From assembly GCA_022706085.1 (NCBI GenBank), contig JAKJDF010000001.1, positions 48,394 through 112,393 on the forward strand: a DNA stretch of 64,000 nt, in the 5' to 3' direction. This DNA comes from Candidatus Latescibacterota bacterium (GTDB taxonomy: Bacteria > Latescibacterota > MWCZ01). Below, in pieces: positions 3,469-49,613 of the stretch. The translations under genes and the position numbers were made by a program. A model generated the notes under the pieces. The model worked only from the letters and a program-made list of their open reading frames with translations. It did no database searches and had not been told where the DNA came from. The number at the start of each line of letters is the position of its first letter. Positions within the stretch are counted from its first letter, which is position 1.

Positions 3469-3522
3469 AACCCGCGCGACGGCGGTGAGCCAACGCGCGG
3501 GCCCCAGGCACACCAAAAACAA

Positions 3523-4506: not shown

Positions 4507-4553
4507 CTGCTCCCTCCAGAGTGTAACACACGTACGACAACCAACTACCTGCA

Positions 4554-6389: not shown

Positions 6390-6483
6390 GCGGAGGTGCT
6401 CCAGAAATCATACCAAGCGTACGAGCTTCACCGGTGAGCAGCAACCGTGCGCCGTTGTGAACGCCCCACGGTAGTGCGTCATT

Positions 6484-7158: not shown

Positions 7159-7164
7159 CCCTCT

Positions 7165-7959: not shown

Positions 7960-8150
7960 CTTTTCCTCCCTGTGTCTGAGAAGCATGCATCGCTGTTTCC
8001 TTTCAAAGATATCGGTCTCACCCGGCGCGTTCCACCTGTGCCGTTCCGTTGCCAAACGAAGGCGCCTGCGGCGATATTTCAGTTTTGAGTTCTGTTCTGA
8101 AGCACGGATAACCGTCCGGATACCGACGCACCACGCATCACACCCGCCAG

Positions 8151-9215: not shown

Positions 9216-9229
9216 GCTCTTCGCAATCG

Positions 9230-9312
9230 CCCCGGTGGCGAAACTGGTAGACGCTGCGGACTTAAAATCCGCTGGCCCAAAGCCGTTCGGGTTCGAGTCC
9301 CGACCGGGGCAC
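9230..9312 (+). tRNA. tRNA-Leu (anticodon TAA)
   Basis: Acceptor stem GCCCCGG/CCGGGGC. Anticodon stem GCGGA/TCCGC with loop CTTAAAA. Long variable arm (class II). T-loop GGTTCGAGTCC. CCA not encoded. Confidence 0.9.
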
Positions 9313-9350
9313 TCAAAAACAGCGCGTCACTTGCCGAGGGTCACCCCCCC

Positions 9351-11351: not shown

Positions 11352-11356
11352 GCTCG

Positions 11357-12712: not shown

Positions 12713-12760
12713 CGCGGATTTCTCCTTGTTACGGGTTGGCCGGCAGCACCATCGTGCCGC

Positions 12761-13603
12761 CTAGCGCCCGACGGAAATCAGGTCCTTCTCAATCAGCCGT
12801 TTGATCAGAAGCGCAACCGCGCCTTCGGGATCGTTCTCCGCATCCCCCAGGACTTCTCCGCGCGCACGTTCCGGGGCGAAAATCTTTTTGACGTGGGTGG
12901 GCGAGCCTTTGAGGCCGACTCGTGAGAGATTCAGTTGCAAAAACTGGTTATCCCACACGGGGATTTCGGCGGTTTCCGCCATGAGCCGGTTTGGCACCTT
13001 CGGGTAGCGGGGCTCGTTAATCTCGCGCACCAGGGTCAGGCAGGCGGGCAGAAGGGCACGCACGACCTCCCGGCGGCCTTCAAGCTTCCTCCGCACGGTG
13101 ATGGTTCGCTCCGCACCGTTGATGTCCAGAATCCTGTCTACCAGAGTCAGCAGGCAATAGTTCAGTCGGACGGCAATGCCGGGGCCCACCTGAGCGGTAT
13201 CGCCGTCTATCGTCTGCTTCCCGCAGATGACGAGATCCACCCTTCCCTGTTCTTTTTCGACGCGGCGGATGACTTCGGAGAGCACGTAACTCGTCGCCAG
13301 AGTATCCGCCCCGCCAAATACGCGGTCGGATACCAGCACCACATCGTCCACGCCGAGGGCGAGGCACCTGCGCAGGGTTGCCGCCGCGTTGGGCGGCCCC
13401 ATGGTGACCGCAGTCACGAGGCATCCGAACCGATCCTTGAGGCGCAGTGCCTCCTCCACGGCGTGCGTGTCAAACGGGTTCATGATGAACGGCACGCCTT
13501 CACGGATCAGCGTACCCGTTGCAGGGTCCACCTTCACCTGCGTCGTATCGGGCACCTGTTTGACGGCCACCACCACGCGATTCAGCGTTTTCCGTGTTGT
13601 CAT
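12761..13603 (-). CDS. etfB: electron transfer flavoprotein beta subunit (FixA/bifurcating-type motif)
   Basis: N-terminus VVAVKQVPDT. DGDTAQVGP motif encoded at 13181..13207. Adjacent to etfA. Confidence 0.85.
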   Translation of the reverse strand: MTTRKTLNRVVVAVKQVPDTTQVKVDPATGTLIREGVPFIMNPFDTHAVEEALRLKDRFGCLVTAVTMGPPNAAATLRRCLALGVDDVVLVSDRVFGGADTLATSYVLSEVIRRVEKEQGRVDLVICGKQTIDGDTAQVGPGIAVRLNYCLLTLVDRILDINGAERTITVRRKLEGRREVVRALLPACLTLVREINEPRYPKVPNRLMAETAEIPVWDNQFLQLNLSRVGLKGSPTHVKKIFAPERARGEVLGDAENDPEGAVALLIKRLIEKDLISVGR

Positions 13604-14256: not shown

Positions 14257-16263
14257 TTGCGGTACGGTGATCGTCTGTTTTCGAACGTCGCACGCGTTGC
14301 GCGGGAGCAACGCCTCGGACGTCATGTCGCACCGACACTCCTGACCATCCTGCTGGTTTCCGCCCCCTCGGCGTTTGCCCTCGCCAACTACACGGACCCG
14401 TCCGGGTACCCCACGCCGTGGCCAAGCGTGTTAACCACCAGCGCCTACACGCGGCTCGGCGTCCCGGAGGCGGACAAAACCGGTCAGACTGACGGGTCCA
14501 AAGGCGCTTCGCCACAAAGCTCCAACGACTTCTCCTCGGGCCCTCTCAACGACCAGCCGTCGTTTTTCTACTACGGGAACGGCACGATCCTCTACTTCCG
14601 CTTCCGTGTCGGCGGGCCGCCGACCGCACTCACCGGCAGCGGGCAGCCCTTCACTTCCGCCACGTGGAACGTGTTGATGGACACGGACGGCGACGGATGG
14701 AAGGAGTTCGTCGTCTTTCTGGATGGCACCAGTTCAACCGTTCAGCCGGACGACATCGTCATTATCTACGAAAACGTGAACAGCCAGCGGTTCGACATGA
14801 ATCAGGTCGGAATCTGGCGGCAGGACTGCGCGGGACCCAACGACAACGTGGACGGCGCATCCGGCAAAAGTTCGACATGGGACACCGACCCCGATGCCTA
14901 CGTGTGGGATTTTGGCAGGACGCGGGTGGTGCAGATTGACCGGACAAAACCGGCGGGAAGCCAGAACAGCGAATACTGGATTGACGTGCAGGTGCCCGTT
15001 GAGGCCTTTGACGCAAGGTCGCTTACCCCGCCAGGTCCGCAGCTCACCGCGTCGAGTTTCTTCTCCATTGCCGCAACCACAAGCGCGAGCAACACTGATC
15101 CCACGCACAAGGACCTGCTGTACAGCGGGGATTTCGCGCTGGCGGACGTTCCGTTGCCGGGCGGAGACCTTTACGATGGGTACGGCACCCGAATAGACGC
15201 GCCGATCATCGCCGGGCTTACCCAGACGGGCTGCCCTTCGCCTGATACGCTCAAAGCGACGGTCGCGGATGTTTTGACCGTAGTCGGTGGTCTGACGACG
15301 GACACAATAGATTCGGTGTGGTTTGAGGTTTACTACGATTACAACGGCGACTGGGCGGAGAACGACCCCGGCCAGACGTGGACCCGCATCGGCGCAGGGA
15401 CCCGCACGGGAATCGGGCAGTTCCGGTACGTCTGGGATGTGTCGCAGGTGTCCGCCGGCAATTTCCTGATCCGGGCGGTAGCGCGCGACAAACAGAATAA
15501 CACGACGTATTCCACAAGCAACCCGGCCGGCACGACGTACCTCGTTGCGAAGTTCACCAACACCTGCAGCGCCATTGCCGTACTCAACACGTCAACAAAA
15601 TCCGTTTCTGACCTCAACGGCGCACAGACGCTTCCGGGCGACACGCTGCTGTACACGATCGTGATCCGTAACACCGGCGGCGGCAGCGCTACAAGCGTGG
15701 TGCTCAAGGATACGGTCTCCGCGTATCTCAACTACGTCGTGAACTCCGCCGCGCCGACGCCTGCGGCGACTACGCCGGCGCTGCAGTGGAACGTCGGTAC
15801 GCTGGCGGCGGGTGCTTCGGCGACGTTCACGTTCCGCGGAGTAGTGAAAAGCCCGATCGCGAACCAGACGGAAGTCCTTAACAAAGGCTGGATAACATAC
15901 AACACCGGAGCCATGACGGGCCTTTCCCGTCTTGTCACCGCCTCGATCACGGTCACTTCTCAGCCGATGGCCACGTGTTCAAAGAGCGTCAACAAGAGCA
16001 CCGCGGCGCCGGGGGATACACTGACCTACACCGTGACGTATGGAAACAACGGCACCGATACGGCCACGTTCCTCATCATCTCGGATACGGTGCCGACTCA
16101 GACCAGTTATGTCTTAAACAGTGTAACGCTCAACGGCGTGCCGAAGACCGACGCGGCTGACGCGGATCAGGTGACCGTCTCCGGGGGCAACATAAGTGTT
16201 TCGGTGGGAACCGTTCCGGTGGGCGGGAGCGGAACGTTTTCGTTCCGCGTGAGAGTGAAGTAG
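14257..16263 (+). CDS. secreted DUF11-repeat protein 1 with a unique ~260-aa N-terminal domain (candidate tip/adhesin)
   Basis: TTG start with GGAGG 9 nt upstream. Signal peptide ...LLVSAPSAFALA. DUF11 cores (LPGDTLLYTIVIRNTGGGSATSVVLKDTV; APGDTLTYTVTYGNNGTDTATFLIISDTVP). Ends ...GTFSFRVRVK. Confidence 0.8.
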   Translation: MRYGDRLFSNVARVAREQRLGRHVAPTLLTILLVSAPSAFALANYTDPSGYPTPWPSVLTTSAYTRLGVPEADKTGQTDGSKGASPQSSNDFSSGPLNDQPSFFYYGNGTILYFRFRVGGPPTALTGSGQPFTSATWNVLMDTDGDGWKEFVVFLDGTSSTVQPDDIVIIYENVNSQRFDMNQVGIWRQDCAGPNDNVDGASGKSSTWDTDPDAYVWDFGRTRVVQIDRTKPAGSQNSEYWIDVQVPVEAFDARSLTPPGPQLTASSFFSIAATTSASNTDPTHKDLLYSGDFALADVPLPGGDLYDGYGTRIDAPIIAGLTQTGCPSPDTLKATVADVLTVVGGLTTDTIDSVWFEVYYDYNGDWAENDPGQTWTRIGAGTRTGIGQFRYVWDVSQVSAGNFLIRAVARDKQNNTTYSTSNPAGTTYLVAKFTNTCSAIAVLNTSTKSVSDLNGAQTLPGDTLLYTIVIRNTGGGSATSVVLKDTVSAYLNYVVNSAAPTPAATTPALQWNVGTLAAGASATFTFRGVVKSPIANQTEVLNKGWITYNTGAMTGLSRLVTASITVTSQPMATCSKSVNKSTAAPGDTLTYTVTYGNNGTDTATFLIISDTVPTQTSYVLNSVTLNGVPKTDAADADQVTVSGGNISVSVGTVPVGGSGTFSFRVRVK

Positions 16264-16277
16264 GAAAGGAGCGTGCA

Positions 16278-16859
16278 ATGAGTAGCGACACGGGCATCAG
16301 GCGGGGAGGTTCACGCGCGTTGAGCGCGTTGATCCTCCTGATTGCCGCGTGTGGTGCGCTTGCGGTCAGCCAGCCCGCACGTGCTCAACAACCGGCAGCA
16401 AACGGCGTGTCCATCACCATCACCGACGAACTCGTCCTGCCCGCGGGTGATCCGCGAATCGGGAAAGCGGTGAGGGACAGCGCCGGTAACCTCATTTCCA
16501 GACCGGGTGACATCATCAAGTATACCCTTACCGCCGTGAACAATGGCACGGAGCCGGCGTACGGCGTGGAAATCGTGGACCCGATCCCTCGGGGAACGGA
16601 GTTCGTCATCGGGAGCGCCGCCGGCGTCGGGATGACGATCACGTACAGCGTCGATGGAGGCAGGTTTTTCCAACCTGCACCCATCATGTATGACTTCCAG
16701 AAGCCGGACGGAACGATTGAGAAGCGGCACGTGCCGGCCGACCGTTACACGCACATCAAATGGCTGGTGAACGAGCCAATCAGGCCGCGATCCAGAGCAG
16801 TCGCCACCGTTCGGGTAAGAGTGTCCTTGCCCGGAGCAGCAGAAGGGGCAGGACAATGA
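16278..16859 (+). CDS. secreted single-DUF11-domain protein 2
   Basis: AAGGAG RBS. Signal peptide ending AVSQPARA. DUF11 core RPGDIIKYTLTAVNNGTEPAYGVEIVDPIPRGTEFV. Confidence 0.75.
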   Translation: MSSDTGIRRGGSRALSALILLIAACGALAVSQPARAQQPAANGVSITITDELVLPAGDPRIGKAVRDSAGNLISRPGDIIKYTLTAVNNGTEPAYGVEIVDPIPRGTEFVIGSAAGVGMTITYSVDGGRFFQPAPIMYDFQKPDGTIEKRHVPADRYTHIKWLVNEPIRPRSRAVATVRVRVSLPGAAEGAGQ

Positions 16860-16948
16860 CGACACATCGTTCACGGTTTTTTTCACGAGAGCAAACGCGC
16901 ACGAGCTCACACAATACCCCGGAACCACTCTCTGAAAGGAGGAGCGCC

Positions 16949-18685
16949 ATGAAGGCACTCAGGGGTCGAACATGGTGGTTTCTCGGGTTGCTGCTGGCCC
17001 TTGTTCCTTTCGGAACGTCCTGGGCCGCCGGCACACCTGCGGGAACCGTCATCAGTAACTTCGCGACCTTGAGCTACAGGGACGTGAACGGCAATGCGTT
17101 GCCGAACATCACCTCGAACACCGTCACCACCGTGGTGGCGCAGGTTGCCGGCGTGGATGTCTCGCCGGCCACGTCGTCCCAGTCGGTGGCGGAAAACTCG
17201 TGGGTCTCGTACACCGCGACAGTCACCAACATGGGCAACGGCACCGATTCGTTCACCCTCACCACGTCAGCCCTGTCTTCCGGCTGGACGGCCGTTATTT
17301 ACGGCGACCCGAACAATAACGGGGTTCTGGACGCGGGTGAGATGGTGCCGGGCAACGTTGTCAGCACCATCGCGAGCCTCCCGGCGGATAGCGCGAAGCA
17401 CGTATTCGTGGTCGTGAACGTGCCGCTGGGTGCACTGGATGGTTCGTCACAGGCAGTCACGCTGACCGCGACCTCGCAGTTCAACACCGGCGTCTCGGAT
17501 GCGGGCGTGTACACGTCCACCGTCTCAACTGCCGTGCTGTCCATGACGAAGTCGGCAACTCCAGCCGACCCGAAGCCGGGTGACATCGTGACGTACGCCA
17601 TCGTGGGGAATAACACCGGCACCAGCACGGCGTACGGTGTCGTTGTCAAAGACATCATCCCCAGTGGCGTGACCTATGTTCCCGGTTCCACGCGCATCGT
17701 CATCGGTCCGGGCGGCACGTATGATACGGCTACGCCGATGACGGACGCGGCGGATGCCGACCCGGTGGATTACGGCGTTACCGCAGCCGGTCAGGTGACC
17801 GTCAACTGGGGCAATTCCCCGGCCGGACAGACCGGAACCATTTTCATCCGCGTGCAGGTGAACGCCGGCATCGCGGCGGGAACGGTTGTCTCCAACCAGG
17901 CCAGTGCTACGTACAGCTCCACGCCGGGAGGCGACCCGCTTCCTGCGGTGAACAGCACGCCGGGTGATATCACCGTTGCCGCGAAACCCATCATCACACT
18001 GTCGAACACTTCGCTGGCGCTCACCGGCCAACCGGGTGACAGCCTGACGTATGCCTTCAGCCTGACAAACAGCGGCAACTCGAACGATGTGTTCGACTTC
18101 ACGACGTCCTCCACGCAGGGCTTCACCAATCAGATCTGGCTCGATGCCAACAACGACGGCATCGCCGGGAATGATGGCGACGTTCTGCTGACGGACACCG
18201 ACAGCGATGGCAAGGTCGATACGGGCTCAATACCGGCAGGTACCGTTGCCCATATCATCGTGGCGCTGGTGGTAACGCCGGGAACGGCGGACATGGACGT
18301 GGACGCCACCACGGTAACGGTCGCGTCTTCCGTCGATCCGACGGTTACAGGCACGGTTACGCTTACCTCCACCGTGCACGCGCCGGTGCTTTCGATTGTG
18401 AAGTCCGTGTCTCCGACCGGCTCACAGCCGCCCGGCACGGTGCTGACGTATACGGTCGTGGTGTCGAACAATGGCCATGGCACGGCGACGCAGTTGCAGA
18501 TCGTGGACCTGATCCCCACCAACACAACGTATCAGGCCGGGACGATCAAGGTGAACGGAACCGCGCGCACCGACGCCGTTGACGGGGACAACGCCGAACT
18601 GCAGGGTGGCAGCGTGGTCGTTCGCTTCGCCACGATGGGCGCAGGCTCGAGTAACACGTTCACGTTCGACGTGAAGATTGACTGA
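16949..18685 (+). CDS. secreted DUF11-repeat protein 3 (candidate fibre shaft subunit)
   Basis: ORF 16760..18685. ATG 16949 has AAAGGAGGAG upstream and gives signal peptide MKALRGRTWWFLGLLLALVPFGTSWA. An alternative ATG 16856 overlaps the stop of protein 2. DUF11 cores KPGDIVTYAIVGNNTGTSTAYGVVVKDIIPSG and PPGTVLTYTVVVSNNGHGTATQLQIVDLIP. DxDxDG-like loops. Confidence 0.8.
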   Translation: MKALRGRTWWFLGLLLALVPFGTSWAAGTPAGTVISNFATLSYRDVNGNALPNITSNTVTTVVAQVAGVDVSPATSSQSVAENSWVSYTATVTNMGNGTDSFTLTTSALSSGWTAVIYGDPNNNGVLDAGEMVPGNVVSTIASLPADSAKHVFVVVNVPLGALDGSSQAVTLTATSQFNTGVSDAGVYTSTVSTAVLSMTKSATPADPKPGDIVTYAIVGNNTGTSTAYGVVVKDIIPSGVTYVPGSTRIVIGPGGTYDTATPMTDAADADPVDYGVTAAGQVTVNWGNSPAGQTGTIFIRVQVNAGIAAGTVVSNQASATYSSTPGGDPLPAVNSTPGDITVAAKPIITLSNTSLALTGQPGDSLTYAFSLTNSGNSNDVFDFTTSSTQGFTNQIWLDANNDGIAGNDGDVLLTDTDSDGKVDTGSIPAGTVAHIIVALVVTPGTADMDVDATTVTVASSVDPTVTGTVTLTSTVHAPVLSIVKSVSPTGSQPPGTVLTYTVVVSNNGHGTATQLQIVDLIPTNTTYQAGTIKVNGTARTDAVDGDNAELQGGSVVVRFATMGAGSSNTFTFDVKID

Positions 18686-18720
18686 CGAGCAGCAGAGCAG
18701 ATGAGCTGAGTTGAATCAGG

Positions 18721-18752
18721 CTCCTCTCCCGCCTTTCGGGGCGGGAGAGGAG
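18721..18752 (+). terminator. 13-bp perfect stem-loop (CTCCTCTCCCGCC-TTTCGG-GGCGGGAGAGGAG) between protein 3 and the giant gene; attenuator or mRNA-stabilising hairpin candidate
   Basis: Read directly. Not followed by a T-run, so not a canonical intrinsic terminator. Confidence 0.45.
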
Positions 18753-18789
18753 CGCAACGACGGCAAAGAAAAAGAATCGAGAAAGATAG

Positions 18790-21700
18790 ATGTTCTCGCG
18801 TCTTCGGCTACGGGTGTACCTACTGGTCGCCGCCATGTGCATGGCAGCGACCAGTGTGTACGCCGTGACGCCGCCGGGAACGCTGATCACGAGCCAGGCT
18901 TCCGCTACGTATTTTGATAACGGCGGCTTCCAGTTCTCCATCCTGAGTAACACCGTTGTTACGCCGGTTCTCGGCGCCGTCGTCGGGACGGACGGTACGA
19001 TAGCTCAGAACACGCAGATCGTCGCCGGCGAACCCATTACGATCATTGTTACGGACCCCGACCGCGATTACCTCCCGAACGCGATTGACACGGTGCATGT
19101 GACCGTGGTGAACTCGCGGACGGGCGAAACCGAAACCCTTGTGCTGTACGAAACCGGGCAGGGCACCGGCGTGTTTTCCGGTTCCCTGCCCACCTATTAC
19201 GGTCAGAGCGCAGGCGCTGACGGTGATGGGACGCTGTTCGCGCAGCCGGGGGACGTGTTGCAGACGTCCTACGCCGACACGGCAACGTCGACCGGCGGCA
19301 CGGCGACGGTGACCGGCCAGACAAGCGTTCTGCCCACCTGGATCAAGCTAACGCCAGAACCGCACACCATCGTCGCCAACGGAACCGATCAATCGCGGCT
19401 GACCGCCCGGGTGACGGATGACCTTGACCGGCCGCTGCCGGACGGGACGATCGTCGTGTTTACGGCGGACAAGGGCAAGTTCTCGAACGGGACGCAGCGG
19501 ATCGAGGTGCCGGTAGCAGGTGGCAACGGGGAAGCAGTCACCGTGCTCACCGCACCCATTCTGGCGGCGAATGACACGGCGCGCGTGCTTGCGTCGTATC
19601 GCGGGTTCGATTCGGACGTGATCAAGTTGATCATCCTGCCGGGCGCCGTTGCGGTGCGCGTGTATGACCAGACACGAGACGTTGAGGTGAGGGCGAGTGA
19701 CCCGGCGCTTCTTGTTGAGGTGACGCTCGAAGGAACCACGGTCACCGGCGACCCGGTTTCGATCCACGTCACGGTGGACGAGAATGGCGTGTTCGTCGTG
19801 CCGGATATTCCGCCCGGCAACTATGAACTGCACGTCGTTGTGACGAGCCGAACTACGGGCGAAGTCGTCATGGACGGCGTGCTCCAAACCATCATCGTGA
19901 ATATGGACGGGTCGACCTCGCCGCCGCGCAACTCCGTAAGCGGGATGGTGCATGCGCGTAATGAGGAGTCGGGGGCGCGGTATGCCGGCGCGACGGTTGA
20001 GCTTTTGGACGCCAGCGGCAACGTGGTGGCGACCACGATCCTCGACGCCATGGGCAGGTACGAGTTTCAGAACCTGCTGCCGGGGGCCTACTCCCTGCGC
20101 GTGAAGATGGAGGACGGCGATACCTTCACGGTGCCCGTTTCCTCGCGCACGAACAACCTCGGCGAAGTGGTGTTGAACGCAGACGTGCTGATTGATCCGT
20201 TCGGGCGGGTGTTTGATGCCGTCACTACCGCGTTGATTCCCGGGTCCACGGTGACGCTGCGGAACCTTGACGAGAGTGTGCTGGCGATCCCGCCGCTGAG
20301 TGGAACCGGCGTCCCGCCGAACGTGAACAACATCAACCCGTTCGTCACGCCAGCCGACGGCCGGTACGCGTTCCTGTTCAGCTCATCACAGGTAGGGACG
20401 GTGGCGAATCCGGCGCGGTACATCATGACGGTAGATCCGCCATCCGGAACCACGTATCCGCCGCGCAGGATGCACCTGACGGTGCGGCCGACGGCGGAAG
20501 GTTCGTCGACGATCATGATGACGGTGGCCTCCGGCGACGGCCTTCAGATCGCGCGGCCAAACTCGTTCGGGCTCACCAACGGACCGGTCACGGTTCCGGA
20601 TATCGAGACGGTTGCCTACAACGTGCCGATGTTCGCGAAAACACCGATTCTGAAGTTCTCGAAGCTCGCGTCCACCGACACGACCAGCTACGGTGAGACG
20701 GTTGACTTTGCGATCGTGGTGAAGAACTTGGGGAACGACATCGCGCCTGCGGTCACCGTCACCGACACGCTGAACAGCGGGTGGAAGCTCGTTTCGTCGG
20801 ATGCCACATCGTCGAGCGGGGGTATGCTGAGCTGGGCTGTCGGCGACCTGCAGCCGGGCGGGAGCGATACGCTGCATGTGCGCGCCGAGGCGATGGACCA
20901 GGGCGTGATTCTGACGAACGCCGCGTGGGCGCAGTTCACGGGTGGGCTGCCGATCTCCTCGCAGGCGGATGTGGTCTCGCGCAGCGCGTCGTCGATATCC
21001 GTCACGAAGGCAGTCGTGACGCCGCCGGCACTTGTGGGAAAAGAGATTCACTACGAGATCCGTTTGAAGACCCCGCCGGGGTACGCAGGCAAGATCACGG
21101 TTGAAGACCCCCTGCCGCCCGAACTGGTGTACATCGTTGGAAGCAGCGTTCCGGCTGCGACGTACGATGCGGGTACGCATACGCTTACGTGGGATGTCTC
21201 CGGCGCCACCACTGACACAGTGCGGGTGTTCAGATTCGCCACGGAGCCGCGCACCGACCTGTCGCCGGGGGACTATCCGATTCCCAACACGGCGACGGCA
21301 AGCGTGGGAGCGTTCAAAATCGGCTCGAACCGGGCGGACGACCTCGTGACGGTGCCCTACTTCCGAATCACGAAAACGTCGGACATCACCAGCGCGGAAA
21401 CCGGCGATTTCGTGGTGTACCGGATCGCGCTGGAGAACCTCAGCGCGTCCGACAGCCTGTCGAACATCGTGGTGCGGGACGTTATGCCGTTCGGTTTCGA
21501 GTATGTGCCCAACACGGCGCGCCTCGACGGCGTTCCCGCTCCGCCGGACACACTGCGGGACCGGCAGATCATCTGGAAGGTTTCCGGGGTAGGCGCCGGC
21601 AGAACCCGCCAGCTCACCTACCGGCTCGTGCTGGGCATGGGGGCGGGCGCGGGAGACGGGCGGAACACCGCAACGGCAACTGCGAAGACCTCGCGTGGGG

Positions 21701-24700
21701 CGACACTGGCCGCCGGCCCTGCTACGGCGAGGGTGTTCGTCCGGCCTGCGCCGTTCAGCAGCGATCAGGTGGTTCTTGGCCGCGCGTGGGTTGATCTGAA
21801 CGGCAACAAGGTGCACGATGAAGGTGAACCGGGTGTTCCGGGCGTGGTACTCCTGATGGAAGACGGCACGCGCATCATCGCCGATAGGTCGGGCCGATTC
21901 TCCATTCCGGAAATCCGCGCCGGCGACCACGCAATCCGGCTTCTGGAGCACAACATTCCGGACAGCCTCGAGCCGGTGATTCTGGGCGTGAGGTCTACGA
22001 ACGATCCGTGGGTACGGTTCGTAAGCGTATCCGCCTCAGGGATGGCGAAGGCGAACTTCCCGTTCCGGGTGAAACCTCGTGCACCGGCCCCACCGCCACC
22101 GCCGCCGCCTCCTCCGCCGCCACCGGCACCGCCCGAGTCGCTCACCGTGGCGGTCACCATTGAGCGGGTGATCGTTCCGGATTCGATTACGATCCCGGCG
22201 TCGGAGACGATCATACTGGAGTCCGGCGTGACGTTTGCAACCGGGAAAGCCGATCTGCGCCCTGAAGGAATCGCGGTGCTGAACGATCTGCTCCCGAGAA
22301 TCAAACGAGCGCAGGGCCGTCAGATCACGGTGAGCGGACATACTGATCCGCGGCCGATCCGCACGCGGCAGTTCCCCAACAACATGGTTCTTTCGCTGGC
22401 GCGAGCTCGTTCGGTGCGCAACTGGATGGTGCAGAACGGCGTGGATTCGACGCACATCGCGATATTCGGGTACGGTCCCGACCGGCCCATAGCACCAAAC
22501 ACCACGCCGGAGGGGATGCAGAAGAACCGCCGCGTGGAGATCAACCTTGATTACGGAACCGAGGCGCGGACGATTCCTGCCGGGACCGCCCGTGTGCGGC
22601 TCGCGATCCGCACCTCGGAAAATGCGGCACGCGATACATTCACGATCTCGCAGCCTCTTCCGGAGGATATTGCGCGTCCTGCTCCGGATTCGTTGCAAGA
22701 TCGTACCGTGCAACACGGAGACTCCGTGTGGGCGAAAATCGGCCGCGAGACTTCAGTGTTCACCGATCTGCCCGCCCCTGTGGTCACCCACCGCACGTGG
22801 GGCGCGATTCCGCTGCGCCGCACGAGCGAGCACCGGGATGGAACGATACGCGAGACGTGGAACGGTAGTATCCGCGTTCCCCTGCCGGCTGATTCGGGCG
22901 CTTCGGCGGTTCCGCAGAGTGGCCCGGTTCAGACAGGGCAAACGCCCGCGGGTGCGCCGGCGGGAATCAGTTCCGCTTCAGCCGTCGCTGCCTTTGGAAC
23001 AGCGACCGAAACGGGGCTCACCCCGGCGAATGGCGTGGCGCAGACAGGTGCTTCGGCTGCTATCTCAGACAGCGCAACGCGGGCACTGGCGCCGCCAATC
23101 GAGCTGCGACAGGCGCCCACGCCGAGAGAACGTGTCCAGCGACCGGGTCAACTGGTGTGGATCGAGTACCCGACCGCAGACAGCACAGTGAGTTATCGTG
23201 ACCGCTTGACACTGATTGCGCGCGGACGCGCTGGAACGCCGATGACACTCCGGCTGAATGGCAGGGAAGTCACGACGCTCACTGTTCGCGCGGATTCGAA
23301 GGCGGATTTCCTCAACATTGCGGCGCCTTCCGGCCCTGTGACGCTCACCGTTACGCAGACGCTGCCGGGCGGGCGGGTTTTTGCCGACAGCGTTTTCCTG
23401 CACGTGGTGGGACCCGCCGCGCGGGTGACTCTTGACGTGAGCCCTTCGACCCTGCCGGCTGACAGTCTCTCGCAGACGGAGGCGGTCGCGCAGGTGCTCG
23501 ACGAGTGGGGTATGCCGCTGGCAGACGGGCAGATCGTCACTTTCGAAATCGATAATGGTTCGATCCTTACACCGGATCTTTACCCCGACGAGAGGGGAGT
23601 TCAGGTCCAGGTAAGAAACGGATACGCCTCCGTACTCATCCAGAGTTCCGCGACAGTCGGCGAGGCAACGCTGACCGCGAATGCGTCGAACGTCGTTGCC
23701 AGGGCAACTCTGAATTATGCCGTGCCGTACGAGAGATTTACGCTGGTGGGTCTGGCTTCCGGCCAAGTCGGGTGGAAAACGAATGCCGCGGCTCCGGCCG
23801 GAATCAATTTTGGCGAGGACTTCGAGAAGGGCGCGTATGGAAAAGGCAAAGTGGCATTCTTTGGTCGCGGAACGGTGCGCAACAACTACCTCCTGACTAC
23901 ATCGTTTGATTCGGATCGGCGGTTTGACGACCAGGTGTATCGTTATCTGACGCCAGAACGAGCGTATCCCATCCATGGCGACGCCAGCTCGATTTTCTAC
24001 GAAGCGCCCTCCGCGAGCAAGTTCTTCTTCCGGCTCGCGAAAGAACGGAACTACCTGCAGTACGGGGATTTCGCGCCGGATCTTTCGCAAGCTGAGCTTA
24101 CGGCGTACCGGAGGACCTTCACGGGCGTGACCGCCGCAATGCGTAACCGGCGCACCGCGTGGAGCCTTTTTGGCGCCTTCACCGAGCAGGCGATACAGGT
24201 TGACGAGATTCCGGGCGAGGGGATTTCCGGGAATTACTACCTGTCGGCGGCACGTCGTGGCGTGCGCGTGGTGGAAGGAAGCGAAAGGATCGTCATTCAG
24301 ACGCGCGACCGTATTCATCCGGAAAACATTCTGCGCGAGGAAGTGCAATACCGCTTCATCGATTACGAGATAGACTATCTCGCCGGCACGATCCTGTTCA
24401 AGAAGCCAATCCCCAGCCGGGGTTTTGACGAGAACCCGATTTTCATTGTCGCCACGTACGAAGCGTCGCGCGCGCTTCAACGGCACACGGTGGGCGGTGG
24501 CCGATTTGCGCTTCATTCCGGCGAAAAATGGGAGGTCGGCACTTCGGTTGTGGGCGAAGGGCGATCCACGGGTGACTACTGGCTTAGCGGCGTTGACGCC
24601 AGTTATCGGCCTCTGCGAAACATGTTCGTCAATGCGGAGCTGGCGAGGTCGGATCTGGCGCAGACGGGATGGGCGTGGAAATTCGGCGCGCAGGGCCGGT

Positions 24701-26145
24701 ACGGGAGCACCCTGAATTATGACCTCTCGTACAGAAGCGCCGAGCGCGCGTTCTACAACCCGAGCAGCACCTCCGCCCTTCCCGGCGTTACGAAGATGCG
24801 GGGCAAAGTGACGTGGTCGCCGGTTGCATTTGCCAGCTTTACCGGGGAAGCATTCCGATCTGACGACGTGATCAACGGTGAAGTACGCAACAGCGGCGCC
24901 CTCGGCGGGACGTATCGGTGGCGCACGCTGACCGGACTGGTCTCCACGGAACTCACGAGTGTGGACAGGGCTGGTCAGGAAACGCGCACCGGGGTGCTGA
25001 GCACTGGTCTGGAGTGGGCGGCGTCCCGGACGCTCACCCTTAAGGCGGAACGCGACCAGAACTTCCTTGACGAGGACGTGGCGTACCGACCGACACTGAA
25101 CCGCGTTCAGGCGCGTTGGTCGCCGTTGCAGCGTCTGGACGTTGTCGCGGAGCACGCGTTCCGCGACTATAACGTGATGGACTCCAGTTACACTGCGATC
25201 GGCCTGCAATCCCGTGTAACAGACAACACGACGGCATACGCCAACTACAAACTTGACGGCGGGATCAACGGTCAGAAGAACGAGGCGATAGTCGGTCTGC
25301 GGCACCGGTTCATGCCTTTGCCGTATGTATCCATGAGTACAGGCTTCGAGCGGATGCAGACGCTGAGGGGCAATCGCTCCGCCGATTTCTACTCCTACAG
25401 CATCGCCGGGGAGTACCTGCCTCCCGAGTCTTTCAAAGCGAGCGCACGCTTCGAACAGCGCGAGGGCCAGACTCTCGACAAGATGGTGGCGTCGGGAGCG
25501 TTCGACGTTGTGCTGGTTCGGAACCTTTCCCTGCTCGCCAAGCACACGTATGCGGGCGAAGCGACGTTGGCCACGGGGACATGGAATCGGATGCGGAGGC
25601 ATCATTTCCTGTCCGGTCTCGCGTGGCGGTCAGAGCGGAGCGATTATCTGAACGTTCTGGGCAAGTACGAGTACAAAAAGCAGTATAATGGTATGTTGAC
25701 GCCGGCCACGGACCGTTCAGTCCACATCGGATCGCTGGAAGGTATGCTGGAGCCGCGCTCTCAGCTTGAGGTGTTCGGGCGGTACGCGTTCAAGGTGGCC
25801 CAGCTTTCCACCGAGGGAGTGTCCTCGCGGTCGCTTACAGACCTGTGGATGGGGAGCATTCGTTACGAATTGCGGGAAACCTGGGATGTGCTCGGGGAGT
25901 ACCGTTTGATCAGCCAGCACACTGCCAACGATCTGCAGCATGGAGCTTCGGCGGAAATAGGCCGTGTTCTCGGTGGCAATGCACGAATCGCGTTCGGTTA
26001 CAACTTCGTCGGGTACCACGACAGCGACTTCGCCGGGCTCTCGTACTGGGGTCAGGGACCCTTCATGAGGATCCAGGTCAAATTCACTGAGCGCGACGTC
26101 GCCGGGGGGGTGGACGGCCTCCAGACCTTCTGGCGGGGCAGGTGA
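18790..26145 (+). CDS. giant (2451 aa) envelope protein: signal peptide, Big_1-like and CarboxypepD_reg-like Ig domains, three DUF11 repeats, SdrD-B-like domain, poly-Pro linker, OmpA-like domain, Big_1-like domain, ~790-aa C-terminal beta-barrel
   Basis: Signal MFSRLRLRVYLLVAAMCMAATSVYA. DUF11 cores (YGETVDFAIVVKNLGNDIAPAVTVTDTL etc). OmpA block GKADLRPEG...ITVSGHTDPRP...NMVLSLARARSV...NRRVEINL. C-terminal alternating-strand region ending GQGPFMRIQVKF. Confidence 0.85.
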   Translation: MFSRLRLRVYLLVAAMCMAATSVYAVTPPGTLITSQASATYFDNGGFQFSILSNTVVTPVLGAVVGTDGTIAQNTQIVAGEPITIIVTDPDRDYLPNAIDTVHVTVVNSRTGETETLVLYETGQGTGVFSGSLPTYYGQSAGADGDGTLFAQPGDVLQTSYADTATSTGGTATVTGQTSVLPTWIKLTPEPHTIVANGTDQSRLTARVTDDLDRPLPDGTIVVFTADKGKFSNGTQRIEVPVAGGNGEAVTVLTAPILAANDTARVLASYRGFDSDVIKLIILPGAVAVRVYDQTRDVEVRASDPALLVEVTLEGTTVTGDPVSIHVTVDENGVFVVPDIPPGNYELHVVVTSRTTGEVVMDGVLQTIIVNMDGSTSPPRNSVSGMVHARNEESGARYAGATVELLDASGNVVATTILDAMGRYEFQNLLPGAYSLRVKMEDGDTFTVPVSSRTNNLGEVVLNADVLIDPFGRVFDAVTTALIPGSTVTLRNLDESVLAIPPLSGTGVPPNVNNINPFVTPADGRYAFLFSSSQVGTVANPARYIMTVDPPSGTTYPPRRMHLTVRPTAEGSSTIMMTVASGDGLQIARPNSFGLTNGPVTVPDIETVAYNVPMFAKTPILKFSKLASTDTTSYGETVDFAIVVKNLGNDIAPAVTVTDTLNSGWKLVSSDATSSSGGMLSWAVGDLQPGGSDTLHVRAEAMDQGVILTNAAWAQFTGGLPISSQADVVSRSASSISVTKAVVTPPALVGKEIHYEIRLKTPPGYAGKITVEDPLPPELVYIVGSSVPAATYDAGTHTLTWDVSGATTDTVRVFRFATEPRTDLSPGDYPIPNTATASVGAFKIGSNRADDLVTVPYFRITKTSDITSAETGDFVVYRIALENLSASDSLSNIVVRDVMPFGFEYVPNTARLDGVPAPPDTLRDRQIIWKVSGVGAGRTRQLTYRLVLGMGAGAGDGRNTATATAKTSRGATLAAGPATARVFVRPAPFSSDQVVLGRAWVDLNGNKVHDEGEPGVPGVVLLMEDGTRIIADRSGRFSIPEIRAGDHAIRLLEHNIPDSLEPVILGVRSTNDPWVRFVSVSASGMAKANFPFRVKPRAPAPPPPPPPPPPPPAPPESLTVAVTIERVIVPDSITIPASETIILESGVTFATGKADLRPEGIAVLNDLLPRIKRAQGRQITVSGHTDPRPIRTRQFPNNMVLSLARARSVRNWMVQNGVDSTHIAIFGYGPDRPIAPNTTPEGMQKNRRVEINLDYGTEARTIPAGTARVRLAIRTSENAARDTFTISQPLPEDIARPAPDSLQDRTVQHGDSVWAKIGRETSVFTDLPAPVVTHRTWGAIPLRRTSEHRDGTIRETWNGSIRVPLPADSGASAVPQSGPVQTGQTPAGAPAGISSASAVAAFGTATETGLTPANGVAQTGASAAISDSATRALAPPIELRQAPTPRERVQRPGQLVWIEYPTADSTVSYRDRLTLIARGRAGTPMTLRLNGREVTTLTVRADSKADFLNIAAPSGPVTLTVTQTLPGGRVFADSVFLHVVGPAARVTLDVSPSTLPADSLSQTEAVAQVLDEWGMPLADGQIVTFEIDNGSILTPDLYPDERGVQVQVRNGYASVLIQSSATVGEATLTANASNVVARATLNYAVPYERFTLVGLASGQVGWKTNAAAPAGINFGEDFEKGAYGKGKVAFFGRGTVRNNYLLTTSFDSDRRFDDQVYRYLTPERAYPIHGDASSIFYEAPSASKFFFRLAKERNYLQYGDFAPDLSQAELTAYRRTFTGVTAAMRNRRTAWSLFGAFTEQAIQVDEIPGEGISGNYYLSAARRGVRVVEGSERIVIQTRDRIHPENILREEVQYRFIDYEIDYLAGTILFKKPIPSRGFDENPIFIVATYEASRALQRHTVGGGRFALHSGEKWEVGTSVVGEGRSTGDYWLSGVDASYRPLRNMFVNAELARSDLAQTGWAWKFGAQGRYGSTLNYDLSYRSAERAFYNPSSTSALPGVTKMRGKVTWSPVAFASFTGEAFRSDDVINGEVRNSGALGGTYRWRTLTGLVSTELTSVDRAGQETRTGVLSTGLEWAASRTLTLKAERDQNFLDEDVAYRPTLNRVQARWSPLQRLDVVAEHAFRDYNVMDSSYTAIGLQSRVTDNTTAYANYKLDGGINGQKNEAIVGLRHRFMPLPYVSMSTGFERMQTLRGNRSADFYSYSIAGEYLPPESFKASARFEQREGQTLDKMVASGAFDVVLVRNLSLLAKHTYAGEATLATGTWNRMRRHHFLSGLAWRSERSDYLNVLGKYEYKKQYNGMLTPATDRSVHIGSLEGMLEPRSQLEVFGRYAFKVAQLSTEGVSSRSLTDLWMGSIRYELRETWDVLGEYRLISQHTANDLQHGASAEIGRVLGGNARIAFGYNFVGYHDSDFAGLSYWGQGPFMRIQVKFTERDVAGGVDGLQTFWRGR
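22090..22125 (+). repeat. twelve consecutive proline codons (CCG/CCA/CCT) inside the giant gene
   Basis: Codons read directly. Flanked by PAPA.. and ..APP. Confidence 0.95.
22225..22548 (+). other. OmpA-like peptidoglycan-binding domain, internal to the giant protein
   Basis: GVTFATGKADLRPEGIAVLNDLL...ITVSGHTDPRPIRTRQFPNNMVLSLARARSVRNWM...GYGPDRPIAPNTTPEGMQKNRRVEINL matches the OmpA C-terminal domain consensus. Confidence 0.8.
23722..26085 (+). other. predicted large C-terminal beta-barrel domain of the giant protein
   Basis: ~790 aa of short amphipathic strands rich in Y/F/W/G/R with Asp/Asn/Gly turns. Terminal strand ...FMRIQVKF. A ~90-aa non-barrel insert is encoded at 24196..24463. Confidence 0.6.
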
Positions 26146-26185: not shown

Positions 26186-27229
26186 TCAGACTGCTACCTC
26201 TCCCCCGTCCTTCCTCAACAGCTCGATCACTTTCCCCATTACGGCGAACGCGTCGGCGACGTAGAGAACGTCCGCCTTCCCCCTCGCCCACCCGCAACTG
26301 GGATCGAGATTTACGGCGCGCCGTTCGTTGATGAATCGCCATCCCACCACGTGCGGTTCCTCACCGTGGCAGCAGGTTGCAAGCCCTTTGGGATGGCGCG
26401 GCGTGGACCCCGTTTGACCTACCTGGTGCATATGGGTCAGAAGGCTGATCACCTTCTGCCCTTCCCCGGACTGATCCACCAGGGATTTGCTGCTCCCCAG
26501 GGATGCGTGCGTCAGGTCAAGGAAGCTCCGGATCAGGTTCTCGGCTTCCTCGACATGAACTTCTCCGTCGGACTGTTTCTTCGTCCACCCGGCCCCCGCA
26601 ACAAACAGGAGATCGGCATCGGGGCGAATCGTCTGGGTTCCTGCGGAAGCTGGTTCGATTCCGGCGATCCGGGTGCGCGTTTCCACCGGTTCCACAGGTA
26701 GTATGGAGACCTCCGCGTGCCCGGCAGCGCCGCCCCAAGGGTCGAATACCCCCGGCTCGAGAAGCACCACCCACGGTCGCTGGGACCGTGTCAATTCAGC
26801 AACCATCCTCTGCCGATAGTACCACCGCTGGACGAGAAGCGTGCTTTCGTCCACGCGGAGGCCGGTCACGCGCGTGTCAACGCGACCCTTCGCCCGAAAC
26901 GCAGCACCGGGCATGCAACGCGCGGTGCGGGTGGTCTGAGGCGCCAGGACGAAATCCGCTTCGGCAGCGCGAATCAAAGCCGCAGCCGCTGCTGAATCGG
27001 TGGCACACCTTGCAGACGCAAACTCTGGTCCCTGGACGGCAAGAATCCGGGTTGCGCCGCACGAACCGATGCTGTCCGCGGCTTGTTGAACACGCTCGCC
27101 AATCAATCCGACGTCGAGTGCCGCACCGAATGCCTGTGCAAGCTCGCACGCTCCGGACAACGCTTCAAGCGTTGCTTTCCCGAGAACCCCGTTTTCCTCA
27201 ACAAATGCGACAAGAAGAATCTTTTTCAT
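26186..27229 (-). CDS. divergent electron transfer flavoprotein alpha-like subunit
   Basis: ORF 26186..27256, start ATG 27229 (MKKILLVAFVE...). ETF alpha fold with QVGQTGSTPRHP block. The canonical GISGAIQH FAD motif is replaced by CCHGEEPH. Confidence 0.75.
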   Translation of the reverse strand: MKKILLVAFVEENGVLGKATLEALSGACELAQAFGAALDVGLIGERVQQAADSIGSCGATRILAVQGPEFASARCATDSAAAAALIRAAEADFVLAPQTTRTARCMPGAAFRAKGRVDTRVTGLRVDESTLLVQRWYYRQRMVAELTRSQRPWVVLLEPGVFDPWGGAAGHAEVSILPVEPVETRTRIAGIEPASAGTQTIRPDADLLFVAGAGWTKKQSDGEVHVEEAENLIRSFLDLTHASLGSSKSLVDQSGEGQKVISLLTHMHQVGQTGSTPRHPKGLATCCHGEEPHVVGWRFINERRAVNLDPSCGWARGKADVLYVADAFAVMGKVIELLRKDGGEVAV

Positions 27230-27256
27230 TGCACTACCTGTTCCTCGCTGGCTCAA

Positions 27257-28066
27257 TCATCCCCGTATCCACGCGACAATTTCCTCGGCAATCTGTTCCA
27301 CCGGGACATCCTTGACGATGCGAGTGTTTCGTTGCTGCTGTGGGAGTTCCACCTTCACGAACGAAACCCCTTCCGCGCCAACCTGCACCTGCGGGGCCTT
27401 TTGCAGAGCCGGCATGACGCTTCGCATGTTCGCCATCCCGATTTGCGGGTTGTTCGGCGGCTCAGGCAGGTGGCCCGTCGCCCAGCCAACGACCAGCGGA
27501 GGACGATCGCACCTGCTGACGAGGTAATTGCCGCCTTCGACGCGTTCCATGAGACTGATTTCACCGTTCTCAGAAACCGACAGCGAATCAACCGCGAGAA
27601 AGACCTCCCCAATCCCGAGCATTTCGCCAACGACTTGAAGGGTGACACCTGCGTCCCGCGACGCAGACGCGTACCCCCCGAAAAGAAGCAACCGGTTCCT
27701 GTCCAGGTCTGAAATCGCACCTATCGCGTTCGCAAGCGCGGTTGCGGTTTCAAACGGGTCGCAGAAGCCGCTGGCAGACCCGTCAACCGGCACGAAGATG
27801 AACGGAGCTTTCTGTGCGACTGTCATCATGAGTTGCTGCAGTCGCTGCTTTGGACCGACACTGACCAGCCACACTTTCGATCCCGCATTTTCTTTTGCGA
27901 GATGCGCGGCCTCGTACAGCGCGTGCGCGGCCCACGGATCCAGCACGGACGGCAGGATCATCTCGTTTTTGAGCGCTGGCCCCTTCGGTCCGAGATCCGG
28001 CTCGAGGGTCTGCAACGGATCCGGCACCAGACTTCCGCATACAACGATGTGATATCCCGATTCCAT
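27257..28066 (-). CDS. divergent electron transfer flavoprotein beta-like subunit
   Basis: ETF beta-like length and N-terminus (HIVVCGSLVPDP). Lacks the DGDTAQVGP motif (has SASRDAGVTLQVVGEMLG). Adjacent to the alpha-like subunit. Confidence 0.7.
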   Translation of the reverse strand: MESGYHIVVCGSLVPDPLQTLEPDLGPKGPALKNEMILPSVLDPWAAHALYEAAHLAKENAGSKVWLVSVGPKQRLQQLMMTVAQKAPFIFVPVDGSASGFCDPFETATALANAIGAISDLDRNRLLLFGGYASASRDAGVTLQVVGEMLGIGEVFLAVDSLSVSENGEISLMERVEGGNYLVSRCDRPPLVVGWATGHLPEPPNNPQIGMANMRSVMPALQKAPQVQVGAEGVSFVKVELPQQQRNTRIVKDVPVEQIAEEIVAWIRG

Positions 28067-28090
28067 GAAATCTTGTTCCTTCAGAAAGTG

Positions 28091-29986: not shown

Positions 29987-30018
29987 TCGCTCTCAAATCC
30001 GCGCCACGACACCAATGT

Positions 30019-32220: not shown

Positions 32221-32730
32221 GACGGAGTCACCGTTTGCGGATGAAAGCATCTTCTGGAACCCCTGTAGTGCGTGAGCAACGGAGGAAAAGGCCGGGGAAC
32301 CCTGACTGTTCGCAGATCTGTAATCCTGCGTCTGATCGGGAGGGCGGATGGAAGCCGTGCGGCGCGCTCGTCATCGTTGCGCGCGGGTGAATCAGGTGCG
32401 TATGTTTTGGATTGCGCCGACTGCAATCACGCCCAGGACGTTTATTAAGGTCATAATCCGCGAAGGAGCAGTCAAGGGCGAGCAGTTCCGACGTGCAGCA
32501 CGTTTCGCGATGCGTGGTTCAGGTTGAGTCTGATTGTAGCAGGATTGTTTGATCACGGTTTGTGGTACGATTTGCATTACGCGCTTAATTCCCACGGGAA
32601 ACCCTGTTCTTACCGCAGCTTGACACAGACCTGAGAGCGCTGCGACGCATCGCGTGTGAAAAATACGAGCAAAACAGGGCTGATCTGAGAACACGCGAAC
32701 GGGGCTTCGCTTTCAAATTTCGGATACCGT

Positions 32731-49597: not shown

Positions 49598-49613
49598 CGG
49601 AATCTATGCCGGC

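Follow-up and report, generated by a model that had tools for sequence, protein, structure and literature searches.

A conserved four-gene locus probably encoding a barrel-anchored surface fibre joined through split CLIPPER domains in Latescibacterota and other diderm bacteria

Four adjacent genes lie in a 64,000-nucleotide stretch of the genome of a Candidatus Latescibacterota bacterium (assembly GCA_022706085.1, contig JAKJDF010000001.1, forward-strand positions 48,394 to 112,393). We refer to this whole stretch as the window and count all coordinates from its first letter. The genes encode secreted proteins, P1 to P4, that we propose form a surface fibre whose subunits are joined through domains divided between neighbouring chains. 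They are arranged as follows.

14257..16263, plus strand: P1, 668 amino acids (aa), TTG start
16278..16859, plus strand: P2, 193 aa
16949..18685, plus strand: P3, 578 aa; the open reading frame (ORF) is open from 16760, and the start that yields a signal peptide is at 16949
18790..26145, plus strand: P4, 2451 aa

An earlier note on this DNA had described four co-directional genes with gaps of 14, 89 and 104 nt, each encoding a protein with a Sec-type signal peptide and a DUF11 module. The ORF coordinates, the translations and Pfam all agreed with this description, P3 being 578 aa long. Each of the four translations has a readable n-region, hydrophobic core and AXA-type site; the signal peptide of P3, counted from the start at 16949, reads MKALRGRTWWFLGLLLALVPFGTSWA, with predicted cleavage before AG. 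Pfam matched PF01345 (DUF11) to P1, P2, P3 and P4 with E-values of 4e-20, 5e-8, 3e-16 and 3e-34 (72.6, 33.6, 60.4 and 118.1 bits, the gathering cut-off being 24.6), and TIGR01451 was matched too. The same note had taken DUF11 to have no assigned function, which no longer holds. The domain has since been characterized as a CnaA-like isopeptide domain, a crystal structure is available (9IFR), and PF01345 is now named CLIPPER in Pfam (PMC12617251). In that structure an intramolecular Lys-Asn isopeptide bond, presumably formed by Asp catalysis, gives resistance to heat and proteases (PMC12617251; 2025 survey). CLIPPER builds the stalks of fibrillar adhesins, among them one with an OmpA-like anchor (PMC12617251).

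We built a CLIPPER hidden Markov model (HMM) of 137 positions from ten intact domains of these proteins. The last CLIPPER domain of P1 aligned to model positions 8 to 94 and ended at residue 667 of 668, and that of P3 aligned to positions 4 to 94 and ended at residue 577 of 578. A Pfam match to DUF7927 independently stopped at position 94 or 95 of 132, exactly at the C-terminus of P1, of P3 and of three foreign P1 proteins. The C-termini of P1 (...GTFSFRVRVK, then stop) and P3 (...NTFTFDVKID, then stop) fall directly after strand F of the final CLIPPER domain, and that of P2 (...ATVRVRVS(+10), then stop) apparently does likewise. The mature N-termini of P3 (AGTPAGTVISNFATLSY...ITSNTVTTVV) and P4 (AVTPPGTLITSQASATY...ILSNTVVTPV) resemble the strands that normally follow strand F. 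We call these N-terminal segments donors and the truncated C-terminal domains acceptors; they are located as follows.

15973..16260, plus strand: P1 acceptor half-domain, strands A-F only, with Lys576 and Asp610
17027..17152, plus strand: P3 donor segment, aa 27-68 (AGTPAGTVISNFATLSYRDVNGNALPNITSNTVTTVV...), starting at the predicted signal-peptidase site and containing Asn37
18356..18682, plus strand: P3 acceptor half-domain, aa 470-578, with Lys485 and Asp520
18862..18975, plus strand: P4 donor-like N-terminus, aa 25-62 (AVTPPGTLITSQASATYFD...ILSNTVVTPV)

P1 thus consists of a signal peptide (aa 1-41), an N-terminal domain (aa 42-436), an intact CLIPPER domain (aa 437-572) and an incomplete one (aa 573-668). 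P3 consists of a signal peptide, the N-terminal donor strands, immunoglobulin (Ig)-like domains that include one intact CLIPPER domain, and the C-terminal acceptor half-domain.

Appending the P3 N-terminus to the C-terminus of either P1 or P3 carried the HMM alignment on from position 94 to position 134 and added about 11 bits, a gain that none of 200 shuffled sequences reached. Donors taken from other loci, appended in the same way, extended the acceptor alignment as the P3 donor did. The P4 N-terminus added about 5 bits, which one or two of 200 shuffles reached. The P3 donor scored 41.3 on the P3 acceptor against a shuffle mean of 30.4, which was as good as its fit to the P1 acceptor. In the hmmalign output the junction fell without a gap in the F-G loop, ...TFSFRVRVK running straight into AGTPAGTVISNFATLSY where an intact domain has ...TFTFRGVVKSPIANQTEVLNKGWITY. 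The break occurred at the same loop in more than 100 P3 proteins, and in P1 proteins. Judged from these alignments, the G strand that the preceding final CLIPPER domain lacks is contained in the mature N-terminus of P3 or P4. A profile search of PDB with an alignment of the acceptor-donor chimera returned only a non-significant match to RspB (E 0.46) and did not recover 9IFR.

We then looked for the same genes elsewhere by scanning one genome per species with a P3 profile, which gave 78 loci that were mapped by means of ORFs and HMMs. The gene order seen in the window proved to be syntenic in other genomes: P1-P2-P3-P4, with the barrel described below, was present at about 60 of the 78 loci, in at least 10 diderm phyla. 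These loci come from Latescibacterota, Neomarinimicrobiota, Gemmatimonadota, Lentisphaerota (including the cultured Oligosphaera ethanolica), Desulfobacteraceae, Syntrophales, Acidobacteriota (including strain Mor1), Ignavibacteriales, Elusimicrobia, Verrucomicrobia and others. Wherever the contig was long enough the order was kept, running from a variable P1 through a P2 of 160-195 aa and a P3 of about 580 aa to a stalk protein, in which an OmpA-like domain was not always present, and a barrel that was either fused to it or encoded next. No other gene recurred around the cassette at the 78 loci. The system therefore appears to be self-contained, without chaperone, usher, sortase or ATPase.

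A variable 'TDAxDGD' loop splits local HMM alignments, and the protein ends were therefore scored with dedicated HMMs, one for the acceptor end and one for the donor. The counts were as follows.

N-terminal donor motif: P1, 0 of 39; P2, 0 of 55; P3, 58 of 62; P4, 38 of 54
Acceptor end, cut after strand F: P1, 26 of 44; P2, 2 of 56; P3, 62 of 62; P4, 0 of 51

The cassette thus has a polarity, in that P1 has an acceptor end only, P3 has both a donor and an acceptor end, and P4 has a donor end only.

The residues of the isopeptide triad were divided in the same way. The full Lys/Asp/Asn set was found inside intact domains (the first CLIPPER domains of P1 and P4 and the middle domain of P3), while in the terminal CLIPPER domains the Asn strand was absent in cis. 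The acceptor residues are Lys576 and Asp610 in P1 and Lys485 and Asp520 in P3, the Lys being on the first strand in both; the donor residue is Asn37 of P3. Among 30 diverse P3 homologues, Lys485 and Asp520 were invariant and Asn37 was present in at least 90%. Across the loci, the acceptor Lys was accompanied by Asp or Glu in 39 of the 43 P1 proteins scored and at 57 of the 60 loci with a scored P3 end, and the donor Asn was present in 55 of 59 P3 proteins and 50 of 53 P4 proteins. Overall, the acceptor side had Lys and Asp, and the donor side Asn, at about 90% or more of some 60 loci. Internal intact CLIPPER domains across the loci mostly kept the triad in cis, so the split junction behaves as a normal isopeptide domain with its Asn strand on another chain. 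Since P1 lacks a donor and P4 an acceptor, their conserved reactive residues could be satisfied only in trans. In the window the P1-P3 and P3-P3 junctions both have a complete Lys/Asp/Asn set.

One locus had lost the triad altogether. At L004 (an ENA ERZ24794654 contig; genes at 3-1490, 2114-3850 and 3873-10004) the residues were replaced in P1 (A/G), in the P3 donor (H), in the P3 acceptor (R/G) and in the P4 donor (S), and this was the only locus in which all were lost together. Judged by its residues, L004 appears to be a naturally non-covalent form of the system.

Natural fusions join the two halves of the split domain. The giant protein of locus L001 (364-9990) is collinear with window P3 over its residues 10-579 (45% identity, E 1e-143). 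Past the point at which P3 ends, it continues in frame, ...VTFRTTID being followed by NLSLGATVSNTAFVGY, a G strand in cis with its Asn. The chain after this junction (NLSLGATVSNTAFVGYTD...SNEV) leads into further CLIPPER domains. P0228 has the same P3::P4 arrangement. These two fusions show that the C-terminal half-domain of P3 and a P4-type N-terminus make one domain.

An AlphaFold2 model of P3, computed from 30 sequences, had a mean predicted local distance difference test (pLDDT) score of 85. Donor residues 31-60 were modelled as ordered strands (pLDDT 88-91), and the 4+6 split of the donor (strands at 34-37 and 39-44) was that of the G strand in the intact middle domain (313-316 and 318-323). 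The incomplete C-terminal domain was the most confident region of the whole model. The model is compatible with a docked donor, and we infer that it sits in cis on the C-terminal domain. A Foldseek search with P3 returned generic tandem-Ig matches only. Relatives of P3 carry the NCBI name 'isopeptide-forming domain-containing fimbrial protein', and P3 itself is 100% identical to a protein assigned to Candidatus Latescibacteria.

Some loci have variant shaft genes. L044 (8131-11701) and L050 (7015-12520) each have two tandem P3 paralogues, which suggests major and minor shaft subunits, and L050 also has repeated P2-like genes. In Acidobacteriota loci L070-L084 the P3 equivalent is only about 295-330 aa long and has the donor motif, and a fused stalk-barrel protein of 1580-1680 aa lacks an OmpA domain.

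P1 was hypervariable across the loci, ranging from about 280 to 2400 aa with varied domain content. Its N-terminal domain in the window (aa 42-436), noticed earlier as unique, is lineage-specific and matched no family, and a phmmer search of PDB with P1 found nothing. P2 (16278..16859, plus strand) has a signal peptide and one CLIPPER-like domain that ends just past strand F, and it has no donor strand. An acceptor-only protein cannot be an internal link of a linear chain. A P2-like gene was the sole acceptor-type gene before P3 at L049, L055, L062, L067, L069 and L071, loci without P1, and from its end type P2 is a probable alternative minimal cap. P2 was also considered as a lipoprotein ('LIAAC'), which we rejected since the Cys is not conserved in the family.

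P4 begins with a signal peptide and the donor-like N-terminus; an Ig/CLIPPER stalk, a poly-Pro run and an OmpA-like domain come next, and then a pair of Ig-like domains ahead of a giant beta-barrel. Pfam placed Big_1/Invasin_D3 at residues 186-272 and CarboxypepD_reg/SdrD_B at residues 383-452. The other features of the protein are as follows.

20620..21693, plus strand: three intact CLIPPER domains of the stalk, aa 611-968
22078..22134, plus strand: Pro-rich linker, 12 consecutive Pro (aa 1101-1112) within APAPPPPPPPPPPPPAPP, directly before the OmpA-like domain
22231..22530, plus strand: OmpA-like domain, aa 1148-1247, PF00691, predicted to bind peptidoglycan
23158..23721, plus strand: two Ig-like domains (Big_1 / Invasin_D3 / GH2_C5-like), always ahead of the barrel
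23740..26085, plus strand: predicted giant outer-membrane beta-barrel, aa ~1651-2432, about 32-36 strands with a small inserted beta domain

An OmpA-like domain and a C-terminal barrel had both been read from the P4 sequence beforehand, and both were recovered here. PF00691 matched over profile positions 1-98 of 98 (E 1e-17, 64.6 bits), NCBIfam agreed, and many relatives were found in PDB (E 1e-13 to 1e-18). The domain keeps the Asp and Arg of the peptidoglycan site, the GHTD...NxxLSxxRA motif reading GHTD...NNMVLSLARARS. It was present in only part of the family, in 33 ORFs among the loci and in 13 of 117 fused representatives. As polyproline II, the 12-Pro run would span about 5 nm, enough for a membrane or for the gap between outer membrane and peptidoglycan.

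The last 800 or so residues of P4 were modelled by AlphaFold2 from 29 sequences (mean pLDDT 81) as two Ig-like domains followed by a large beta-barrel of some 780 aa. The barrel has three long strands, the inserted small beta domain and then, from model residue 443, about 32 long antiparallel strands; after the final strand, ..FMRIQVKF, comes a short helix. This region went unmatched by Pfam and NCBIfam models even at E<=1, and by PDB sequences. It thus matches no curated family; a match to a well-characterised one would have spoken against the earlier note. Foldseek matches to PDB structures were weak and generic (TM-score about 0.2) and were to the largest known barrels, SprA, SlpA, MtrB, LptD and PapC/FimD. 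A barrel profile run against 1.84 billion representatives hit 6183 clusters (50% identity) at E<=1e-3 and 2723 at E<=1e-30, and a cluster look-up of the barrel proteins gave no names.

Most relatives of the barrel are stand-alone proteins of about 1020 aa with their own signal peptide, two Ig-like domains and the barrel, and their genes directly follow a giant DUF11/OmpA gene. The window P4 is therefore a fusion of a stalk/OmpA module with an Ig-plus-barrel module. Such stalk-barrel fusions are common and are not an artefact, most of the top 150 representatives being 1600-2450 aa long. The barrel is not always C-terminal, as P0230, P0250, P0282, P0289 and P0299 have 150-450 further residues past it.

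We consider it probable that the locus encodes a self-contained surface fibre, a chain of tip, shaft and base held together by donor-strand complementation and a self-catalysed isopeptide lock, and anchored in a barrel of about 32-36 strands. It would in effect be a fibrillar adhesin split into separately exported pieces that are rejoined head-to-tail outside the cytoplasm through the split CLIPPER domain. Sec would export each subunit. P1, the tip with its variable and perhaps adhesive N-terminal domain, and P3, the shaft, would arrive with a final CLIPPER domain lacking strands G and G', and the mature N-termini of P3 and P4 would be exactly those missing strands. On entering the unfinished domain of the preceding subunit, a donor would bring its Asn beside the acceptor Lys and Asp, and an inter-chain Lys-Asn isopeptide would form without a sortase. 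The chain would run, N to C from tip to base, from P1 (or P2 as a minimal cap) through one or many copies of P3 to P4, and the gene order would mirror the order of subunits in the assembled chain. The P4 barrel would anchor the fibre in the outer membrane, and in this organism the OmpA-like domain, lying after the 12-Pro run, would tie P4 to peptidoglycan. From its size, the barrel would be a likely conduit for folded Ig domains. The pilus-like outline of tip, small subunit, shaft and anchor given in the earlier note is supported and can be made more specific: the donor and acceptor ends fit a tip, a shaft and a base, but the small subunit, P2, has no place as an internal link.

Several points weigh against a fibre of this kind. 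Its support is computational throughout. The triad was mapped through Pfam family membership and relative position and not by residue alignment to 9IFR, and the narrow donor and acceptor HMMs missed 16 of 54 P4 proteins and 18 of 44 P1 proteins. P3 could complement itself in cis and remain monomeric, and P2 is hard to place in a simple linear chain. The window P4 has Ser at the Asn position of its donor, so the P3-P4 junction may be non-covalent here. The topology is a difficulty, because the OmpA domain, with its peptidoglycan-binding motifs, lies between stalk and barrel, and the chain would have to cross the outer membrane at a point ahead of this domain. Neither an energy source nor a chaperone could be recognized.

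The possibility that P3 closes on itself leads to an alternative in which the locus encodes a split fibrillar adhesin of fixed length. Each junction would be made once, giving a P1-P3-P4 or P2-P3-P4 heteromer, and spare P3 would stay closed in cis and unpolymerised. P3 has both ends and its AlphaFold2 model is compatible with an N-terminus docked within a single chain, the P3::P4 fusions show that one copy is enough in some lineages, and nothing in the sequence proves homopolymerisation. We nevertheless regard a fixed heteromer as unlikely, since the P3 donor suits the P3 acceptor as well as it suits that of P1, tandem P3 paralogues occur at L044 and L050, and an isopeptide formed in cis would irreversibly trap a subunit that has still to join P1 and P4.

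The other two alternatives do without a fibre. One takes P4 as a tether between outer membrane and peptidoglycan, or as a porin, like Deinococcus SlpA or OmpM, with the other DUF11 proteins forming a surface or periplasmic layer. Such an envelope scaffold would account for the intact peptidoglycan-binding motifs of the OmpA-like domain and for the very wide distribution of the family, and SlpA was among the best, if weak, structural matches of the barrel. It is nonetheless quite improbable, as most family members have no OmpA domain, the size and content of P1 vary as in an adhesin tip, the strict donor/acceptor polarity favours a linear chain over a lattice, and assembled stalks would far exceed the width of the periplasm. 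The remaining alternative, to which we give the least credence of all, is that no subunits are joined: the four would be independent secreted or outer-membrane DUF11 proteins, their end features ordinary domain boundaries and the barrel autotransporter-like or two-partner-like. DUF11/CLIPPER proteins are indeed commonly single-chain fibrillar adhesins (PMC12617251), and P4 has its passenger ahead of its barrel as classical autotransporters do. Ordinary boundaries would not, however, explain why the break recurs at one loop in so many P3 and P1 proteins, why an orphan Lys/Asp pair without Asn and an orphan Asn strand are both conserved, why L004 lost all triad residues together or why the fusions restore the domain in cis, and models for autotransporters, POTRA and TpsB went unmatched.

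If P1 to P4 form a fibre as we propose, its closest counterparts in diderm bacteria are the chaperone-usher pili (type 1 and P). Both have an acceptor-only tip, a terminal subunit that ends the chain, an outer-membrane barrel at the base and Sec-dependent export. The sequence logic argues strongly for an analogous arrangement, an incomplete Ig fold finished by a neighbour's N-terminal extension, the fold here being CLIPPER and not a pilin. The proposed fibre differs in that two strands would be donated and not one, that the junction carries an isopeptide triad and so is probably covalent, and that the base subunit is fused to the barrel or encoded beside it. The window cassette has no gene for a PapD-like chaperone, and no recurrent gene was found that could add one at the 78 loci. 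The usher model PF00577 was unmatched even at E<=1, Foldseek gave TM-scores of 0.17-0.18 to PapC/FimD, and the barrel has about 32-36 strands against 24.

Sortase-built pili of Gram-positive bacteria share the tip-shaft-base order, CnaA/CnaB-type Ig subunits with Lys-Asn isopeptides, covalent links and an anchor in the wall. The proteins described here have no pilin-motif lysine, and the proposed link would arise from the domain's own autocatalysis once the strand has been inserted; the cells are diderm, and anchoring falls to the barrel, with or without the OmpA domain. Neither a sortase nor an LPXTG motif was found, the C-termini reading ...RVRVK, ...DVKID and ...FWRGR and the neighbouring genes including no sortase. 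Type V secretion was likewise not indicated, as neither PF03797 (the 12-strand barrel) nor PF11924 (intimin/invasin, LysM) matched, and only Big_1/Invasin_D3 Ig domains are weakly shared with intimin and invasin. Nor did the C-terminal sorting domain of the type IX secretion system (T9SS; TIGR04183-type) match P1-P4. The earlier statement that the locus has no chaperone, usher, sortase or T9SS tail was thus borne out by the Pfam and NCBIfam models.

The chemistry proposed here has precedents. In BsaA, a TasA-family protein of Clostridium perfringens, mutagenesis has confirmed a 'donor-strand exchange and lock' to which the donor contributes Asn and the acceptor Lys and Glu (PMC11580942). Both systems have an N-terminal donor with Asn and an acceptor with Lys and a catalytic acid, and in BsaA the isopeptide forms spontaneously after insertion (PMC11580942). 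BsaA differs in its TasA-like fold, its homopolymeric matrix fibre and its monoderm host, and it lacks tip and base subunits and an outer-membrane part; Pfam found no TasA/peptidase_M73-type match in P1-P4. Archaeal threads (Saci_0406) combine donor-strand complementation with intermolecular isopeptides and have no known enzyme (PMC9715654). They are made by archaea from an unrelated subunit, link an N-terminal amine to the Asn of subunit n+2 and involve no outer membrane (PMC9715654). The haloarchaeal 'tafi' (DUF1102) are relevant only as another donor-strand fibre.

In isopeptag/pilin-C, SpyTag/SpyCatcher and SnoopTag/SnoopCatcher, an isopeptide Ig domain has been cut so that one strand, bearing a reactive residue, is carried by a different chain from the rest, and the parts re-ligate spontaneously. 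These pairs are man-made cuts of Gram-positive domains, whereas the cut proposed here would have arisen naturally, would be conserved between phyla and would serve assembly. The single-chain Acinetobacter adhesin B9T28_05395 (PMC12617251) has the same layout, in which a CLIPPER stalk links an adhesive domain at the N-terminus to an OmpA-like anchor, but in our locus that layout is spread over several genes, would be joined by split domains and ends in a giant barrel. Searches of full-text literature outside subscription journals turned up no account of the cassette, of CLIPPER domains split between chains or of the family of barrels, in keeping with the earlier view that the system is undescribed.

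The locus lies, as described earlier, between two ETF operons on the opposite strand, ETF-type gene sets being present on the minus strand at both flanks. The set at 9351-13603 encodes a CCG/4Fe-4S protein, ETF beta and an ETF alpha that begins with a ferredoxin domain. That at 26186-32250 includes two ETF-like genes, a 631-aa ETF-QO-like protein and an unusually long acyl-CoA-dehydrogenase-like protein of 743 aa. A scan of the locus for promoters and terminators gave background levels. We also considered whether P1-P4 might be pieces of one broken giant ORF and rejected this, as the downstream pieces have their own signal peptide and spacer at about 60 loci.

Another surface-structure locus lies 20 kb from the fibre genes. 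It is a polysaccharide export and biosynthesis cluster at 46533-53658 (plus strand), with a Wza-like Poly_export/SLBB protein, a Polysacc_synt flippase and a GT4 glycosyltransferase, and it coincides with a strong dip in AT skew (-0.25 at 50-52 kb). Further on, at 54998-58800 (plus strand), a 704-aa protein without a Pfam match precedes one of 586 aa that combines a lamin-tail domain with a FlgD_ig-like domain at its C-terminus and may be a further secreted surface protein. The minus strand at 4554-6389 encodes a prenyltransferase / squalene-hopene-cyclase-like protein of 611 aa.

Donor-strand fibres with an isopeptide lock are a known kind; the new element here is the outer-membrane component, and the system may deserve a pilus class of its own if the biochemistry holds. 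We put forward more tentatively, as a possibility rather than an expectation, that it represents a new class of diderm pilus present in thousands of lineages, one that needs no chaperone, usher or sortase, is assembled through a split isopeptide domain (a native counterpart of SpyTag/SpyCatcher), and is both exported and anchored by a hitherto unrecognized family of barrels of about 36 strands, comparable in size to the T9SS translocon SprA.

If our reading holds, two large families that at present have no curated model, the barrel (6183 clusters) and the shaft protein of about 580 aa, are defined by this work. If the fibre is real, it would add a route of surface-fibre assembly to the chaperone-usher, type IV, curli, type V and sortase routes, and covalent pili would not be confined to Gram-positive bacteria. 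It would also offer a possible route by which chains of folded Ig domains cross the outer membrane, and its junctions would give protein engineering a large supply of natural peptide/domain ligation pairs that are probably orthogonal. The system is carried by cultured organisms, among them Oligosphaera ethanolica, Desulfatibacillum aliphaticivorans and Acidobacteria bacterium Mor1, and would provide a handle on adhesion and aggregation in Latescibacterota, Marinimicrobia, Acidobacteriota, Lentisphaerota and sulfate reducers, mostly uncultured phyla.

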